This document shows, piece after piece, positions 36,656 to 40,428 of a DNA stretch of 64,000 bases. A program made the translations under genes and the position numbers. Source of the DNA: Streptococcaceae bacterium (lineage in GTDB: Bacteria > Bacillota > Bacilli > Lactobacillales > Streptococcaceae); contig JAIRUS010000046.1 in the NCBI GenBank assembly GCA_031254295.1, forward strand, positions 2,973 to 66,972, written 5' to 3'. The notes below the pieces were generated by a model. It was not told the DNA's origin and ran no database searches. It worked only from the letters and a program-made list of their open reading frames with translations. Each line of letters opens with the position of its first letter. Positions within the stretch are counted from its first letter, which is position 1.

Positions 36656-37186
36656 TTATATAGCGCCGTTGTTACTTTGAGCAATATTTATCATATTTTT
36701 CTCTTCGTGTTCCTGTAACAGAGCGTCGCCTTTTTCGAGGTGCTTGATAAAATCAGTCATTGCTTTTTCGAACTCTTCATAAGTTTTAAGATAATCAGCA
36801 AAATATTGCCCTTTCCATTCACTTTCGATGGTTGCATTCATTTCGGCTATTTTTTGGATTATATTCTCTAATTTTCTTTTCTCATCAAGATAGATTCTAT
36901 TATGATTTTCTGAGACTTGATTATTTAGCAGGTCTTGGAAGCTTAATTCTTCACTGTCTAAGAGACCCATTTGGAAGATATACGTAATGTCATCGGCGTT
37001 AAACAAGTAGAGTTGATCAGCATTTTGATAACCCTCTGGGAAAAGAACTCCAGCATAGTCAAATTCTTTTTGAGTTTCTACCGAAATTTGCTTACGCCCA
37101 ATTATCATCAGTCTCTTTTCACCACCATCTAATAATATGACACTACCGAGAGGTAAAAAGCCTGTTAAATTATTGTCATTATTCAT
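36656..37186 (-). CDS. DUF4176 protein with a C-terminal WXG100-like extension
   Basis: N-terminal LPLGSVILL...MIIGR...FDYAGVLFPEG...FNADDI (DUF4176); C-terminal helix-EWKG-helix. Confidence 0.8.
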   Translation of the reverse strand: MNNDNNLTGFLPLGSVILLDGGEKRLMIIGRKQISVETQKEFDYAGVLFPEGYQNADQLYLFNADDITYIFQMGLLDSEELSFQDLLNNQVSENHNRIYLDEKRKLENIIQKIAEMNATIESEWKGQYFADYLKTYEEFEKAMTDFIKHLEKGDALLQEHEEKNMINIAQSNNGAI

Positions 37187-37221
37187 TTATTTAAGATCCT
37201 TTTTCTTATAGATTTATTCAA

Positions 37222-37569
37222 TCAAGCTATGAATCTCACGGTTAAAGTCCATATCTCTGCTTTTCTTCGTCTGGGGTCAATTTTTTTCGGAGTATCTTGC
37301 TTGTTTTCTATGAGCATATCTTGATATTCTTTACTTTTCATGATCTTTCTTCCACGTTTGATTATAGCGAAGTAGAAAGATATGGCAAGTAAAAAACAAA
37401 ATATCTTGCTATAATTTTCCAGATCATTCCACCATAGTGGTTTCTTAATTACAGGGGATAGTGGAAAAAATGCTTGAATAGATATCTCGACTACGAAAGC
37501 AGTGAATATGCTCACAACAGCAATTATCCACAATTTTCTCTCATATTTATCACTTACTATGTATTTCAT
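37222..37569 (-). CDS. Membrane protein, cassette 2 large gene (C-terminus altered by +1 frameshift)
   Basis: Paralog of 37835-38158 (IKRGRKIM.SKEYQDMLIENKQ). Removing one base of the T7 tract 37281-37287 restores PKKLTPDEEKQRYGL*. Confidence 0.75.
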   Translation of the reverse strand: MKYIVSDKYERKLWIIAVVSIFTAFVVEISIQAFFPLSPVIKKPLWWNDLENYSKIFCFLLAISFYFAIIKRGRKIMKSKEYQDMLIENKQDTPKKIDPRRRKAEIWTLTVRFIA

Positions 37570-37757
37570 TTTATAACTCCTGAAATTCTACCAATAATTG
37601 TGATAAGCATATTTAATAGTCCTATACTAGTTATGAGCATTAAAACTAAATTTCCTATCAAAAACCACATTCGCTTTTTTTCTATTCGTGGTTTATCATT
37701 TTCAAAGTCTTCTGCAATATATAAATGAACATAGTAATTAATTAGCTTATTTATCAC
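37566..37757 (-). CDS. Small membrane protein, cassette 2 small gene
   Basis: Paralog of 38161-38349 (NK.INY.V.LYI..D....PRIE..R..FLIG). Confidence 0.75.
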   Translation of the reverse strand: MINKLINYYVHLYIAEDFENDKPRIEKKRMWFLIGNLVLMLITSIGLLNMLITIIGRISGVIK

Positions 37758-37834
37758 TTTTTCTCCAAATTACTTTATTTTAAAATTGATTCCAATTTCT
37801 TACAGATTTATTCAATTAGCTATGAACTTTAGCA

Positions 37835-38158
37835 TTAAAGTCCATATCTCTTTTTCTCTTCTTCAGGGGTCAATTGCTTAGGTTCATTTTGTTTGTTTTC
37901 TATGAGCATATCTTGATATTCTTTGCTTCTCATGATTTTTCTTCCACGCTTGATGACTGTTCTAATGAAAAGTATTGCTATAATTATCCAAATCCAATTG
38001 ATAATATCTAGATATAATTGGGGCATTTTAGGATTAAGTTTAGCGATATCAATATTATTGGTAATAAAGCTTAGAATAGCTATGGGAATAAAACATAAAA
38101 ACATAATTACAGTGAGCATATTTTCTTGTTTTGAAGTTGTCTGAAAACTGAATTTCAT
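37835..38158 (-). CDS. Membrane protein, cassette 1 large gene (putative immunity)
   Basis: 2 TM plus basic/acidic tail; its RBS lies in the end of the small gene. Confidence 0.75.
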   Translation of the reverse strand: MKFSFQTTSKQENMLTVIMFLCFIPIAILSFITNNIDIAKLNPKMPQLYLDIINWIWIIIAILFIRTVIKRGRKIMRSKEYQDMLIENKQNEPKQLTPEEEKKRYGL

Positions 38159-38160
38159 TA

Positions 38161-38349
38161 CTATTTTCCTCCTACAAATAAATTATAGATGACAATCATA
38201 ATGAGTGAAGTCCAATATGAACCTACTATGCAAACAGCACTCATACTTCCAATCAAGAAAGCTAAACGGCTGCTTTCAATTCTGGGATTTTTTTTACGGG
38301 TATCCTGTCCAATATAGAGATTGACAAAATAATTTATAAATTTATTCAT
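38161..38349 (-). CDS. Small membrane protein, cassette 1 small gene (putative immunity)
   Basis: ATGA overlap with the toxin C-terminal ORF stop; 1 TM. Confidence 0.75.
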   Translation of the reverse strand: MNKFINYFVNLYIGQDTRKKNPRIESSRLAFLIGSMSAVCIVGSYWTSLIMIVIYNLFVGGK

Positions 38350-39795
38350 TTTTTCTTTTTCTCCTCCGATATTTTAAAATTAAATCCGGCGCCTGCACCA
38401 ACAGAAGTTTTTCCTCCTAGTGAAAATTCGCCTTTATTAGGGTTAATGTCTACATGTCCAGTTAAACCAGCAGATAGCACAGAACCTTCGAAGCTTGCAT
38501 TCGCTTTCAAATCAGTAAATGGAATTGTAAATGAAAAAGGTATTTCTAGCTTTGTAGCGGCTATTTCTGCGCCGCCCCCAATATTGAAGTTATTTTTATT
38601 TATATCAGTATAGCCACCTAATTTTCCTGTAACTAAGTTAATATTTGGCCTTGTATTCCATACTTTTGGAGACCATTCCAGCCATGTTCCCGATCCGCCA
38701 ATGCTCGGCCCCATATGGACGTTATCACCCACAGCCTTTGAGCCAAAAGTTTTTCCTTTAGGAGAAATAAGGCTAAAATTTCCATCCATCAGATTTTTTT
38801 TCCGTGACGGCTTTTCCAAATTCAACTTTACCTAATGCGGTATTCCACTGAAAGGCGGAGGCTTCTCCGTATTTTTTCAGTTTTTCTTTATACTCATCAT
38901 GATCGTCTTTTGTACTATATTCGCCATTCAAGAAATTTGATAATCTATTGAGCTTGTCCATTCTTTTTTGATTTTCACTATACTTTTTAAGAGCTAAATA
39001 AAGATCTTCAGCTTTCAAAGGTGAAAGTCCCATAGATTTTGCCATCTCCATAATGGCTTTCAGATCTTTAGGGTCTTTCTTATACTTGATAGTTAATCCT
39101 CCGGCTCCTTCGTCAAATTTCTCATTTCCAAGCTTTTTAGTCCAGCTCATATCGGCATTATTAATGTAGTAATTACCAGAACTGTCAAAACTAACTTGAT
39201 TCAGCGCTATTGCTCCTTGGATAGCCAGTTGAAAGGCTTCTAAACTATCGCTAAAAAGAGAGGAAACTGCAGATACAAACCATTGTAATTTATCAAGTTT
39301 AGTTTTAATTTCGCTAATTTGCGGTTCAAGGATTTGGTCACGCATGTATTCTAATGCTTGATTTTGAGCGATGATAGCCCCAAGCTCTCCAGAGAAAGTT
39401 TCCTGTATAAGATTAAAAAAATTATTATTTCTCTCAAGCTGATCATTGATTTCATCTACTTGCGCATTTTTTAATGTAAGTTGTTGCCTCAAGTTATCCT
39501 CATCTAGCAAATCATAGCCACTGATTTGAGAGTCTGCATAGCTGTAGGAAGAAAGATCGTTTCTAACATCATCAATAGCAGCGTGCACTTTATAAATGGC
39601 TGGAATGATAATCTGCTCAATGAGTCCTTTGCCTGCAGTATACACTGCTCCAGAAAGCAGGCCTGTATTGAGTACGGCTATCAAATGCTTACAACCATTT
39701 GTCAAACGCTCAACAATTTGCGTAGCGATATTTGAGTTATTTGTCAACGCTTGAATAAGTGCTTCAGACTCTGAACTACTATATTTTACTCCCAC
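38346..39795 (-). pseudogene. LXG toxin B split by a frameshift (ORFs 38773-39795 and 38346-38825)
   Basis: LXG N-terminus paralogous to toxin A. The reading frame shifts at the A8 tract (plus-strand T8, 38794-38801) or the adjacent TGGA duplication. Repair gives ~480 aa with a Gly-rich C-terminal domain. Confidence 0.75.
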
Positions 39796-40149
39796 GGCAG
39801 TGCATTCCTTTCTTTATGCAGTTTTTCAATGTCATCATCAGCTGTTTGCCTTATACAAGAATAAGTAAGATTTATTTCTTCGGACTGCTCTGAAATGTAA
39901 TTTCTCATACGTTGATTAAGTTCTTGGTTGAGTTCAAACTCCTCTTGAGCTTTTTGACTTCCCTTTGTAACCTGTTGATAAGAAATTTCGTCATACTGGG
40001 CAGATAGCTGCTGAAATTGACGATTGAAATTTTCTAAAATCACGTTGGTAGTTTTCTTTTTCTTGATATAGCGTATCTATATCATTCTCTTTATGTTGAA
40101 TTTTTAATCCAAGTTCGAGTCGCTCATTCGCATTAATATCTTTTGGCAT
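39786..40149 (-). pseudogene. LXG accessory (Lap-type) gene with a 1-bp insertion
   Basis: MPKDINANERLELGLKIQHKENDIDTLYQEKENYQR, then an extra base at ~40041, then ILENF...LHKERNALPWE. Repaired length is 363 nt, the same as paralog 9436-9798. Confidence 0.8.
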
Positions 40150-40152
40150 TGA

Positions 40153-40428
40153 CTACTCCCAACCTCTAGCATCGGCCTGATCGCGCTGTTCAATATGATA
40201 AGCCAACTCTGGGAATTTATTTGCTTGACCTAAAGTGGCAGAAACTAAATCAGAAACTGCAGTTAGCATTTGATTGGCTAGATTTTTTCCTGTTTCCATT
40301 CCTGATATTCCAGAGCTGTAGTTCAACTCAATATTCTGATTTTGAAAATTAGACGCATCAATTCCTGTTAGCTCGGCGATTGCCTCTTGAGCATCGACGG
40401 TATTTGATTGTATATTCCCTGACGACAT
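40153..40428 (-). CDS. TIGR04197/DUF3130-like small T7SSb accessory protein
   Basis: Paralog of 9161-9433 (AQEAIAELTGIDAS.F.NQ...QANKFPELA). Confidence 0.8.
   Translation of the reverse strand: MSSGNIQSNTVDAQEAIAELTGIDASNFQNQNIELNYSSGISGMETGKNLANQMLTAVSDLVSATLGQANKFPELAYHIEQRDQADARGWE

Follow-up and report, generated by a model that had tools for sequence, protein, structure and literature searches.

A DUF4176 domain fused to an EsxA-derived helical hairpin closes an LXG toxin locus in a termite-gut Lactovum-like bacterium

The window analysed here is a stretch of 64,000 nucleotides from the genome of a termite-gut Lactovum-like bacterium, and it contains an LXG toxin locus on the minus strand that is orthologous to the locus L036. 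The first gene encodes a Lap1-like helical protein of 91 aa (40153..40428) that is 76% identical to the Lap1 of L036 and for which the Pfam scan returned no match; its C-terminus (...IEQRDQADARGWE) resembles that of EsxA. It is followed by a Lap2-like gene (39786..40149) that lies in two frames of 52 aa and 85 aa: in tblastn searches with the intact 120-aa Lap2 of L036, aa 1-43 and aa 37-120 match the window in different frames. The LXG-type toxin gene (38346..39795) is split as well. Here tblastn with the intact 486-aa orthologue of L036 places aa 1-334 and aa 329-477 in separate frames, at 63-64% identity, and the two parts are a 340-aa LXG part (38773-39795) and a 159-aa glycine-rich tip (38346-38825). 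Two tandem pairs of small membrane-protein genes (ORFs of 62/63 aa and 107/115 aa; 37222..38349), presumed to be the immunity cassette, are homologous to the 63/87/84-aa genes of L036. The locus is closed by the gene that is the subject of this work, which encodes a DUF4176 domain joined to an EsxA-like hairpin.

The fusion gene (36656..37186, minus strand, stop codon at 36656-36658) encodes 176 aa. Read from the window sequence, it is an intact open reading frame with an ATG start and no internal frameshift, preceded by a Shine-Dalgarno-like AAGGA (37197..37201) 10 nt 5' of the ATG. A scan for promoters and terminators gave no signal above shuffled expectation. The ORF list and the reading of the locus agree with the sequence-only reading, in which this gene was described as the last of its LXG locus and as unbroken in frame. 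The protein collection contains an identical protein, P0001.

The N-terminal DUF4176 (Ltc/Lcp chaperone) domain covers aa 10-83 (36938..37159) and matches Pfam PF13780 over profile positions 1-74 of 74 (E 1.4e-24, 86.4 bits, cut-off 25). A solved small DUF4176 protein, 9DCS chain A, matches aa 9-90 with an E-value of 4.6e-8. This protein, MQE10_09270 of S. intermedius GC1825, is the chaperone of TelD (Gkragkopoulou et al. 2025, PMC12478183). Genes for small DUF4176 chaperones lie downstream of the membrane immunity genes of membrane-acting LXG toxins (PMC12478183), and the fusion gene, downstream of the membrane-protein genes of its own locus, occupies the same place. DUF4176 chaperones have been divided into two classes, a small one of 70-130 aa that consists of the domain only and a large one of 200-250 aa with an N-lobe and a C-lobe (PMC12478183). 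The fusion protein, with its 176 aa and its C-terminal extension, fits neither: the extra part is an N-terminal lobe in the large class and a C-terminal EsxA paralogue here. The combination of DUF4176 with an EsxA-like hairpin is a third architecture of the family, beside the small and large forms. The same genome also carries ordinary small DUF4176 copies and one large-type copy of 240 aa (C14).

The C-terminal extension is an EsxA-derived, WXG100-like helical hairpin (aa 93-163; 36698..36910, minus strand) with the turn motif W124-K125-G126 (36809..36817); it forms a ~70-residue C-terminal domain of the 176-aa protein and is not a free-standing protein of ~100 residues. In BLASTP it aligns with the genome's own 96-aa EsxA at 40% identity over 58 aa without gaps (E 4e-14). 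Profile-profile comparison by hhalign of eight modules with seven EsxA sequences gives a probability of 99.3% (E 9.4e-21, 66 ungapped columns) and spans EsxA residues 15-80, the module as a whole corresponding to EsxA ~13-83, without a counterpart of the N-terminal ~12-16 and C-terminal ~13-16 residues of EsxA. The module profile also matches the solved EsxA structures 12FA (6.6e-15), 2VS0 (1.3e-6) and 3GVM (2.7e-6). The W and the G of the turn are invariant in all eight modules and in every EsxA sequence compared, and 22 hydrophobic positions are common to module and EsxA (22 of the 26 in EsxA), with one found in the module only and four in EsxA only.

An AlphaFold2 model of aa 80-176 (pLDDT 72) consists of two long helices, residues 2-44 and 48-95 of the modelled piece, with the break at the WKG turn. 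When this model was compared with the PDB by Foldseek, 28 of the 28 best matches were WXG100, EsxA or EsxB chains (TM 0.64-0.77, rmsd 1.7-2.7 A). The full-length AlphaFold2 run on a three-sequence alignment was poor (pLDDT 47), and only the secondary structure was used from it. Together with the EsxA homology and the PF13780 match, the model bears out what had been proposed from the letters alone, namely that a WXG100-type hairpin is joined to a DUF4176 domain, and the C-terminal part does model as such a hairpin. The HMMER evidence for the two halves is divided: PF13780 lies above its cut-off, but the WXG100 models find aa 100-154 of the window copy below theirs (PF06013, 23.4 bits against 27.3; TIGR03930, 23.8 bits against 44.85). 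For PF06013 the orthologue P0002 passes with 30.2 bits, and the scores of the other modules range from 19 to 27 bits. On these comparisons the hairpin and the EsxA of the same genome are paralogues, and the WxG is no coincidence. In the window copy DUF4176 and helix 1 are joined by next to no linker, which may hinder an intradimer head-to-tail bundle.

The window copy ends differently from its relatives. Homology between L031 and the window is confined to 37277-36699 (blastn), and the breakpoint relative to P0002 lies at ~36699, right after the hairpin, so the window copy is without a tail of ~45-60 aa. In its place stands a 13-residue C-terminal end (the MINIAQSNNGAI region; 36659..36697, minus strand), which blastn and the alignments show to be unrelated to the orthologue tails, and the motif [VI]xx[TP]EAK... 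that is conserved in the tails of the closest relatives is missing. The C-terminal PhixxxD motif of EsxA (V83xxxD87), which is essential for the export of EsxA and of toxin (PMC13355648), is missing too: at the places of EsxA V83 and D87 stand N164 and I168, with no acidic residue after them. At the end of helix 2 the conserved Tyr of LLxEYE is a His. Since the tail is lost and both Lap2 and the toxin gene carry frameshifts, the window's locus is possibly inactive or decaying.

The fusion of DUF4176 to the hairpin is a real and conserved one. It recurs in two metagenomic orthologues, P0002 (224 aa, 67% identity) and P0003 (210 aa, 58%), and in a paralogue of the same genome (contig C63, 2224-3057, 277 aa) that follows a glycine-rich LXG toxin and a multi-TM protein; this recurrence refutes a strain-specific read-through. 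The same module is also found on proteins without DUF4176. P0011, on contig C109, starts after a 9-bp gap behind a 509-aa LXG toxin; P0045 lies 3 bp after an LXG-EndoU toxin; the gene for P0053, a tail-less form, overlaps that of an intact 626-aa toxin; and a 243-aa protein on contig C70 is preceded by a 139-aa ORF that is 68% identical to the C-terminal domain of the P0053 toxin. Pfam assigned no family to the N-terminal domains of these four proteins, and we call them immunity-type because of their gene position and their co-variation with the C-terminal domain of the toxin. Carriers of the module are DUF4176 and three unrelated N-domains in the immunity position. In the L035/L036 lineage (18 contigs) the fusion orthologue is split by an A-run, shorter by one base, between DUF4176 and hairpin; as the hairpin is split off there while the toxin is intact, the module is dispensable, at least in that lineage.

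The architecture is very rare. Counting it in databases, as the sequence-only reading had proposed, gave only a handful of fusion clusters among 1.84 billion representatives, and it is absent from about 800 other Lactobacillales genomes. A search of genome contigs with the window protein as single query returned no relatives, a word-index search with the module region of C63 found only C63 itself and P0011, and a second search with a mixed alignment yielded mostly plain DUF4176 proteins and no new fused member. Within the searches made, the module occurs in a single Lactovum-like genome from a termite gut and otherwise only in a few relatives from metagenomes. Representative matches with two matched stretches were considered as further fusions and rejected, being tandem DUF4176 proteins.

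The hairpin evolves under purifying selection as judged by substitution patterns. Its dN/dS is 0.11-0.37 in all unsaturated module pairs; between the C63 and C109 modules dN is 0.049 and dS 0.225, and the differences of the window hairpin from its relatives are mainly synonymous (pN 0.22-0.34, pS 0.58-0.92). At the DNA level C63 and C109 resemble each other only in a block of 412 bp at 93% identity that coincides with the module and its tail, and this pattern indicates that the block was exchanged between a DUF4176 gene (C63) and an immunity-type gene (C109). In the tree the modules are split from EsxA with a support of 100/99, and modules borne by DUF4176 proteins are interleaved with those borne by immunity-type proteins. 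The idea that the module serves as a 3' homology arm for cassette exchange was rejected because C63 and C109 are not similar on the 5' (LXG) side and synonymous sites are saturated in most module pairs.

What might such a hairpin do on a chaperone? The WxG turn and the hydrophobic core and interface pattern of EsxA are kept and PhixxxD is missing, and this makes a handle for docking or dimerisation the most likely function; to the reading of the fusion protein as an Ltc-type chaperone that carries an EsxA-derived handle of this kind, not an autonomous export signal, we give about even odds. The DUF4176 domain would act as a small-type Ltc/Lcp chaperone for the membrane-acting, glycine-rich LXG toxin of its own locus and would hold the hydrophobic toxin segment in the cytoplasm of the producer, as shown for members of the family. 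The ~70-residue EsxA-derived hairpin, grafted onto the C-terminus of the chaperone, could bundle with a second WXG-type hairpin, which may be free EsxA, a further module copy or the LXG-Lap stalk; bundling of this sort would tie the cytoplasmic partner of the toxin to the T7SSb targeting complex. The comparisons above show what the two domains are, that the hairpin is homologous to EsxA, and that the module recurs, is under purifying selection, has moved as a unit and is rare; we infer chaperone activity in this protein, the partner of the hairpin and an effect on export. The movement of the same module, as a discrete unit, onto the probable immunity proteins of other toxins would fit a general partner handle. 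A bolder version, which we put forward as a tentative and somewhat less probable possibility, is that the hairpin serves as a portable handle for docking to the T7SS, which this lineage has attached to whichever cytoplasmic protein partners an LXG toxin, Ltc chaperone and immunity protein alike, and which couples partner complexes to the EsxA-dependent export step, either through a bundle with free EsxA that contains one complete WxG and PhixxxD signal or through mimicry of EsxA at EssC. LXG toxins need the export of EsxA for their own export, but in S. intermedius EsxA makes no contact with the toxin complexes (PMC13355648); a contact between EsxA and the module would therefore depart from the sole system tested.

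The hairpin could instead be an additional Lap-like helper that sits on the LXG-Lap1-Lap2 stalk of the toxin from its own locus and anchors the chaperone or immunity lobe to this stalk before secretion, with EsxA and EssC uninvolved. EsxA does structurally resemble the LXG-LapA3 portion of the TelA complex (PMC13355648), the stalk, chaperone and immunity lobes are joined in the pre-secretion complex of TelE (bioRxiv 10.64898/2026.03.12.711312), and the module is always found on proteins expected to bind the middle or C-terminal part of the toxin. However, Lap1-like and Lap2-like genes are still present in every locus that has the module, and the module sequences are nearer to EsxA than to Lap proteins. 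The near-identical C63/C109 module, moreover, serves two toxins whose LXG genes have no detectable DNA similarity, which argues against recognition of a toxin-specific stalk, and we consider a stalk helper unlikely. Export of the fusion protein itself, as a T7SSb substrate or co-substrate, is doubtful to a slightly greater degree. The hairpin, together with EsxA or another helper, would then be a C-terminal targeting domain in a reverse arrangement like that of TslA/TslM, and a chaperone or immunity domain would leave the cell together with the toxin or in parallel to it. Substrates arranged in reverse do exist (PMC10730906; PMC13560087); the invariant WxG turn of all modules is compatible with such a role, a heterodimer of module and EsxA would restore a composite signal of one WxG and one PhixxxD (by the logic of PMC13355648), and the conserved [VI]xx[TP]EAK of the long-tailed relatives could be a displaced PhixxxE. 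[quoted passage not shown] The N-terminal domains, furthermore, are those of a chaperone and of proteins in the immunity position, not of toxins, and there is no obvious gain in exporting immunity.

A different kind of explanation concerns the window copy only: the locus may have been pseudogenised, the gene being a decaying remnant with a truncated hairpin that is functionless and a frame that is open only because it is short. The two-frame Lap2 and toxin genes, set against their intact orthologues, would agree with decay, as would the loss of everything after the hairpin relative to P0002, the Tyr to His change in LLxEYE and the frameshift in the orthologous gene of another lineage (L035/L036). 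Decay is nevertheless difficult to reconcile with a hairpin that differs from its relatives mainly at synonymous sites and keeps all invariant residues and the hydrophobic pattern of the module, or with the tail-less P0053 adjoining an intact toxin, and the frameshifts, which fall in homopolymer stretches of a draft assembly of metagenome type, could have arisen during assembly. We give this explanation a rather slim chance. The chaperone with a docking or dimerisation handle stays our preferred reading.

With the EsxA proteins of S. intermedius (12FA), S. aureus (2VRZ/2VS0) and GBS (3GVM) and that of its own genome, the hairpin shares the helix-WxG-helix fold and the hydrophobic pattern, but it is a C-terminal domain, is without both ends of EsxA including V83xxxD87, and forms a separate group (100/99). 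A functional analogy can be drawn to EIC-CR/DUF6572, the C-terminal region of S. suis MSE-ExT T7SS immunity proteins, which in a study of 2025 proved dispensable for neutralisation and promoted T7SS delivery (PMC12558993). In both cases a variable N-terminal domain that partners a toxin would be followed by a conserved helical C-terminal region akin to a small T7SS helper. Unlike EIC-CR, the module derives from EsxA, is also carried by DUF4176 chaperones and has no clear YxxxD motif; Pfam finds no DUF6572 match in the window protein and eight other module-bearing proteins (at E-values up to 0.01-1, according to the scan). TslA/TslM (PMC10730906; PMC13560087), which combine an N-terminal lipase toxin with an LXG-like domain and have partner proteins dedicated to them, likewise have their helical T7SS-type domain at the C-terminus and not at the N-terminus. 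In the window protein, by contrast, the N-terminal domain is DUF4176 (or, in its relatives, of immunity type) instead of a toxin, and the C-terminal one is a short EsxA-type hairpin instead of an LXG-like domain.

The sequence-only reading had suggested that the fusion could tether the accessory domain to the secretion pathway or be secreted itself. Its structural part holds, and its functional part has to be divided. The tether is supported indirectly by the portability of the module, its purifying selection, its interface pattern and the S. suis analogue. Autonomous secretion has become less likely, as PhixxxD is missing in the window copy and Ltc chaperones reportedly remain cytoplasmic. 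Beyond that reading, the present analysis identifies the hairpin as a paralogue of the EsxA encoded in the same genome, finds the module on proteins without DUF4176 as well, and shows that the window copy is truncated at its 3' end, in a locus with frameshifts in the toxin gene and in Lap2.

The significance of the fusion is tempered by its rarity and by the possibility that the window's own copy is degenerate. It nonetheless offers a testable hypothesis, that an EsxA-type hairpin is sufficient to recruit the partner of a toxin into the targeting complex, and it bears on how Ltc chaperones and immunity proteins reach the T7SSb machine and are released there. If the docking handle is true, these proteins would join EsxA to LXG toxin complexes through a natural connection that is fixed in the genes and absent from S. 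intermedius, and would offer a means to study the removal of chaperones and immunity proteins at the machine.

The fusion gene lies at 36656-37186 on the minus strand, as an open frame of 176 codons that begins with ATG and has the Shine-Dalgarno sequence AAGGA 10 nt 5' of it on the same strand. Residues 10-83 of its product are a DUF4176 domain (PF13780; E 1.4e-24, 86.4 bits against a Pfam cut-off of 25), also similar to the solved small DUF4176 protein 9DCS (E 4.6e-8). Residues 100-152 match WXG100 (PF06013) at 23.4 bits, slightly below the Pfam cut-off of 27.3, and the NCBIfam model TIGR03930 likewise matches below its cut-off. The sequence-only reading, which had described a DUF4176 domain fused to a helix-WxG-helix hairpin, was correct in coordinates and description (Pfam, ORF; the turn is WKG), and the fusion is confirmed. 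A near-consensus sigma-70 promoter-like site (TTGCCA-16-TATAAT, 11/12) is found at 37361-37388 on the minus strand, within the gene of a 115-aa membrane protein and ~175 bp upstream of the fusion gene; over the region as a whole, promoter-like sites are in no excess compared with shuffles.

The hairpin (the module, residues ~93-163) is a paralogue of EsxA, the small WXG100 protein of T7SSb, and no chance WxG. Contigs C84 and C58 of the genome carry T7SSb core loci, each including a 96-aa esxA, and BLASTP aligns the C-terminal part with its own EsxA ungapped at 40% identity across 58 residues (E 4e-14; found by tblastn too). In hhalign, a profile of 8 modules matches one of 7 EsxA sequences with a probability of 99.3% (E 9.4e-21), module 3-68 corresponding to EsxA 15-80; against PDB structures the module profile finds EsxA of S. 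intermedius (12FA, 6.6e-15), of S. aureus (2VS0/2VRZ, about 1e-6) and the GBS structure 3GVM (2.7e-6). An AlphaFold2 model of residues 80-176, built from 18 sequences (pLDDT 72), shows two long helices that break exactly at W124-K125-G126, and the 28 PDB entries that Foldseek ranks closest to it are without exception WXG100/EsxA/EsxB chains (TM 0.64-0.77, rmsd 1.7-2.7 A). Because of this structural and homology evidence, the objection that the C-terminus might fail to model as a WXG100 hairpin falls away. The two core loci (C84:174-5259 and C58:3-4853) are separate, each with esxA, essA-like, esaB, essB and essC, and their EsxA proteins are 81% identical; either there are two systems, or sequences of two strains were combined in the draft assembly (2.1 Mb, 181 contigs, contamination estimate 2.95%).

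EsxA and the modules have 22 hydrophobic positions in common, with one found only in modules and four only in EsxA. The shared set includes adjacent pairs typical of a four-helix bundle, beyond a two-helix hairpin; by inference, pairing of the module with a second hairpin has been kept. The first ~12-16 and last ~13-16 residues of EsxA are missing from it. The EsxA export signal is bipartite, consisting of the WxG turn and a C-terminal PhixxxD (V83xxxD87), and with D87A neither EsxA nor any of the LXG toxins is exported (PMC13355648). At the positions of V83 and D87 the window protein has N164 and I168, with no acidic residue after. In longer relatives, helix 2 is followed by a helix-breaking Gly-Pro and a tail of 45-70 residues in which the motif [VI]xx[TP]EAK is conserved; all of this is absent from the window copy. 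Its nucleotide homology to L031, the metagenomic contig of the orthologue P0002, runs from 37277 to 36699 and ends just past the hairpin, so the window copy has lost its tail at the island edge.

DUF4176 proteins are the Ltc/Lcp chaperones, which bind a disordered or hydrophobic segment of the cognate LXG toxin, stabilise it and remain cytoplasmic (PMC12478183); LcpE of TelE is a further example. A small class (70-130 aa) often lies beside membrane immunity genes of membrane-acting toxins, and a large class (200-250 aa) has an extra N-terminal lobe (PMC12478183). The window protein is like the small class in gene context but unlike both in its C-terminal extension of EsxA type, and so adds a third architecture; a literature search found no mention of this fusion. 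As a functional precedent, EIC-CR (DUF6572), a conserved region at the C-terminus of immunity proteins in S. suis, comes nearest; it is unneeded for neutralisation, promotes T7SS delivery, resembles the small helper MapC2 and carries YxxxD (PMC12558993). No DUF6572 similarity was detected here, so the tie to EIC-CR is one of analogy, not of membership. One DUF4176 protein of the genome has a near relative under the source name Lactovum odontotermitis. Several of the genome's DUF4176 paralogues that lack the hairpin (C88:2966.., C60:889.., C30:2290.., C9:3648..) have at their ends an acidic stretch and, after it, DPF (DPFYKFR or DDDPFA[SD]VRD[LM]ED), as does the tail of the metagenomic protein P0045; a similar end occurs in only 3 of 194 proteins fetched from databases, and it could be a short linear motif at the C-terminus for a shared partner.

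The same fusion is found in the metagenomic orthologues P0002 (224 aa, 67% identity), which at 30.2 bits is above the Pfam WXG100 cut-off, and P0003 (210 aa, 58%), as well as in a 277-aa paralogue on contig C63, where a linker of ~55 aa joins DUF4176 to the module and a tail follows; this gene, too, comes last in its locus, preceded by those of a 462-aa Gly-rich LXG toxin and a multi-TM protein. A strain-specific read-through is thereby ruled out. Gene for gene, the window locus is orthologous to that on metagenomic contigs L035/L036, with identities of 76% for Lap1 and 56-62% for Lap2 (the helper proteins of the LXG stalk), 63-64% for the LXG toxin, 30-50% for the small membrane proteins, 65% for DUF4176 and 48% for the hairpin. 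There, toxin and Lap2 are intact and the DUF4176-hairpin gene (L036:9001-9632, also L035) is split into P0004, a DUF4176 protein of 106 aa, and P0024, a piece of 94 aa; the two are separated by an in-frame stop at a five-A run (...GAAAAATAG), and the hairpin resumes in the next frame; 18 contigs have this split form. The window shows the opposite state: the fusion gene is intact, whereas Lap2 and the LXG toxin are each in two frames. Integrase, DUF3173 and Rep_OBD genes adjoin the L035/L036 locus, and the L036 locus is therefore probably on an integrative mobile element. The toxin tip (window 38346-38825, minus strand; L036:6667-8127) is Gly-rich with alternating hydrophobic residues, and its sole match is a faint one to an autotransporter beta-domain (E 0.065). 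Its appearance is that of a beta-rich domain which inserts into membranes, and not that of an enzymatic toxin or of a helical glycine zipper.

The architecture is rare. Of 401 family genomes only the window's own contains the fused form, all other matches being ~96-aa EsxA, and 401 genomes of the order (83 genera) yielded no further fusions. In the family search, the five congeners sampled (G001, G012, G020, G027, G033) gave no EsxA-like match, which makes the T7SS and its toxin islands accessory in the genus. When 1.84 billion representative proteins were searched exhaustively with HMMER, 1805 matches of DUF4176 type were obtained. Within the best 150 of these, the count that the sequence-only reading had called for comes to very few fused clusters, only P0001 (identical to the window protein) and P0003, with P0002 presumably inside one of them; the module on other domains is seen there only in P0011, P0045, P0053 and the fragment P0024. 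Those two-stretch hits that were checked (P0006-P0010, P0012, P0014-P0016, P0023, P0026, P0036, P0062, P0088) proved to be tandem DUF4176 proteins and were rejected as fusions. In many proteins (P0006, P0007, P0009, P0010, P0014-P0016, P0026, P0062 and P0088) the two tandem domains come after an N-terminal signal peptide with a lipobox-like Cys; these would be predicted extracellular lipoproteins, which is unexpected when the family is known for chaperones of the cytoplasm.

The domain identities, the homology to EsxA, the recurrence of the fusion, the selection on the module and its transfer as a unit are established by the data, whereas the hairpin's partner, its effect on export and its activity in this organism are what we infer. 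The likeliest account, at about even odds, is that the DUF4176 domain acts as chaperone of the Gly-rich toxin tip and that the EsxA-derived hairpin serves for docking or dimerisation. Bundled with free EsxA, with a further copy of the module or with the LXG-Lap stalk, such a handle would connect the cytoplasmic partner of the toxin with the targeting complex. In its interpretation, the sequence-only reading is supported in part. The earlier proposal that the protein is itself secreted, which would be export in the manner of a reverse arrangement, is improbable: the fusion it was built on stands, but the window protein lacks PhixxxD and Ltc proteins stay in the cytoplasm. A purely Lap-like part for the hairpin on the stalk is unlikely, if slightly less so, and decay of the fusion gene in this genome we consider as doubtful as self-export.

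A handle of the proposed kind would not be peculiar to DUF4176 proteins. By tblastn, the genome holds four fused copies of the module (C51, the window's contig; C63; C70; C109) and two EsxA genes. P0011 (C109:9633-10694, minus strand; 353 aa) has a ~200-aa N-domain without Pfam family and lies 9 bp after a 509-aa LXG toxin with its own Lap1/Lap2 genes; the C70 protein (C70:2698-3429, plus strand; 243 aa) has a different N-domain and follows a 139-aa ORF. In metagenomes, the 215-aa P0053, whose N-domain is related at 39% identity to that of the C70 protein, overlaps a 626-aa toxin at the latter's stop, and the 270-aa P0045, with an N-domain without Pfam family, lies 3 bp after an LXG-EndoU toxin; these module-bearing genes in immunity position are located at L033:2322-3134 and L034:2516-3163. 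The 139-aa ORF and the 626-aa toxin's C-terminal domain share 68% identity; toxin domain and following gene thus vary together, in the manner of toxin-immunity pairs. Position and co-variation are the sole basis of the immunity label for N-domains other than DUF4176. The module is seen on three unrelated N-terminal domains, none in Pfam, right after LXG toxins (EndoU, 626-aa, 509-aa). At C70:2275-4617, orphan C-terminal domains of toxins (139 and 141 aa, with ...ENGY.F... at the end of both) form an array in which each precedes a putative immunity gene; the array lies downstream of an LXG toxin of DUF6883 type that has a DUF4926 gene.

At the DNA level C63 and C109 resemble each other only in a 412-bp block of 93% identity, which covers exactly module and tail. 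In the tree, modules stand apart from EsxA (support 100/99), and those borne by DUF4176 and by immunity proteins are interleaved, C63 grouping with C109 (98/92). Wherever dS is unsaturated, module pairs have dN/dS of 0.11-0.37; for C63 and C109, dN is 0.049 and dS 0.225 across 139 codons. The block, the interleaving and the low dN/dS show that the module is a selected, translated unit that has moved between genes of different kinds of toxin partner. Its presence on immunity-position proteins may be the more general, and the more interesting, phenomenon.
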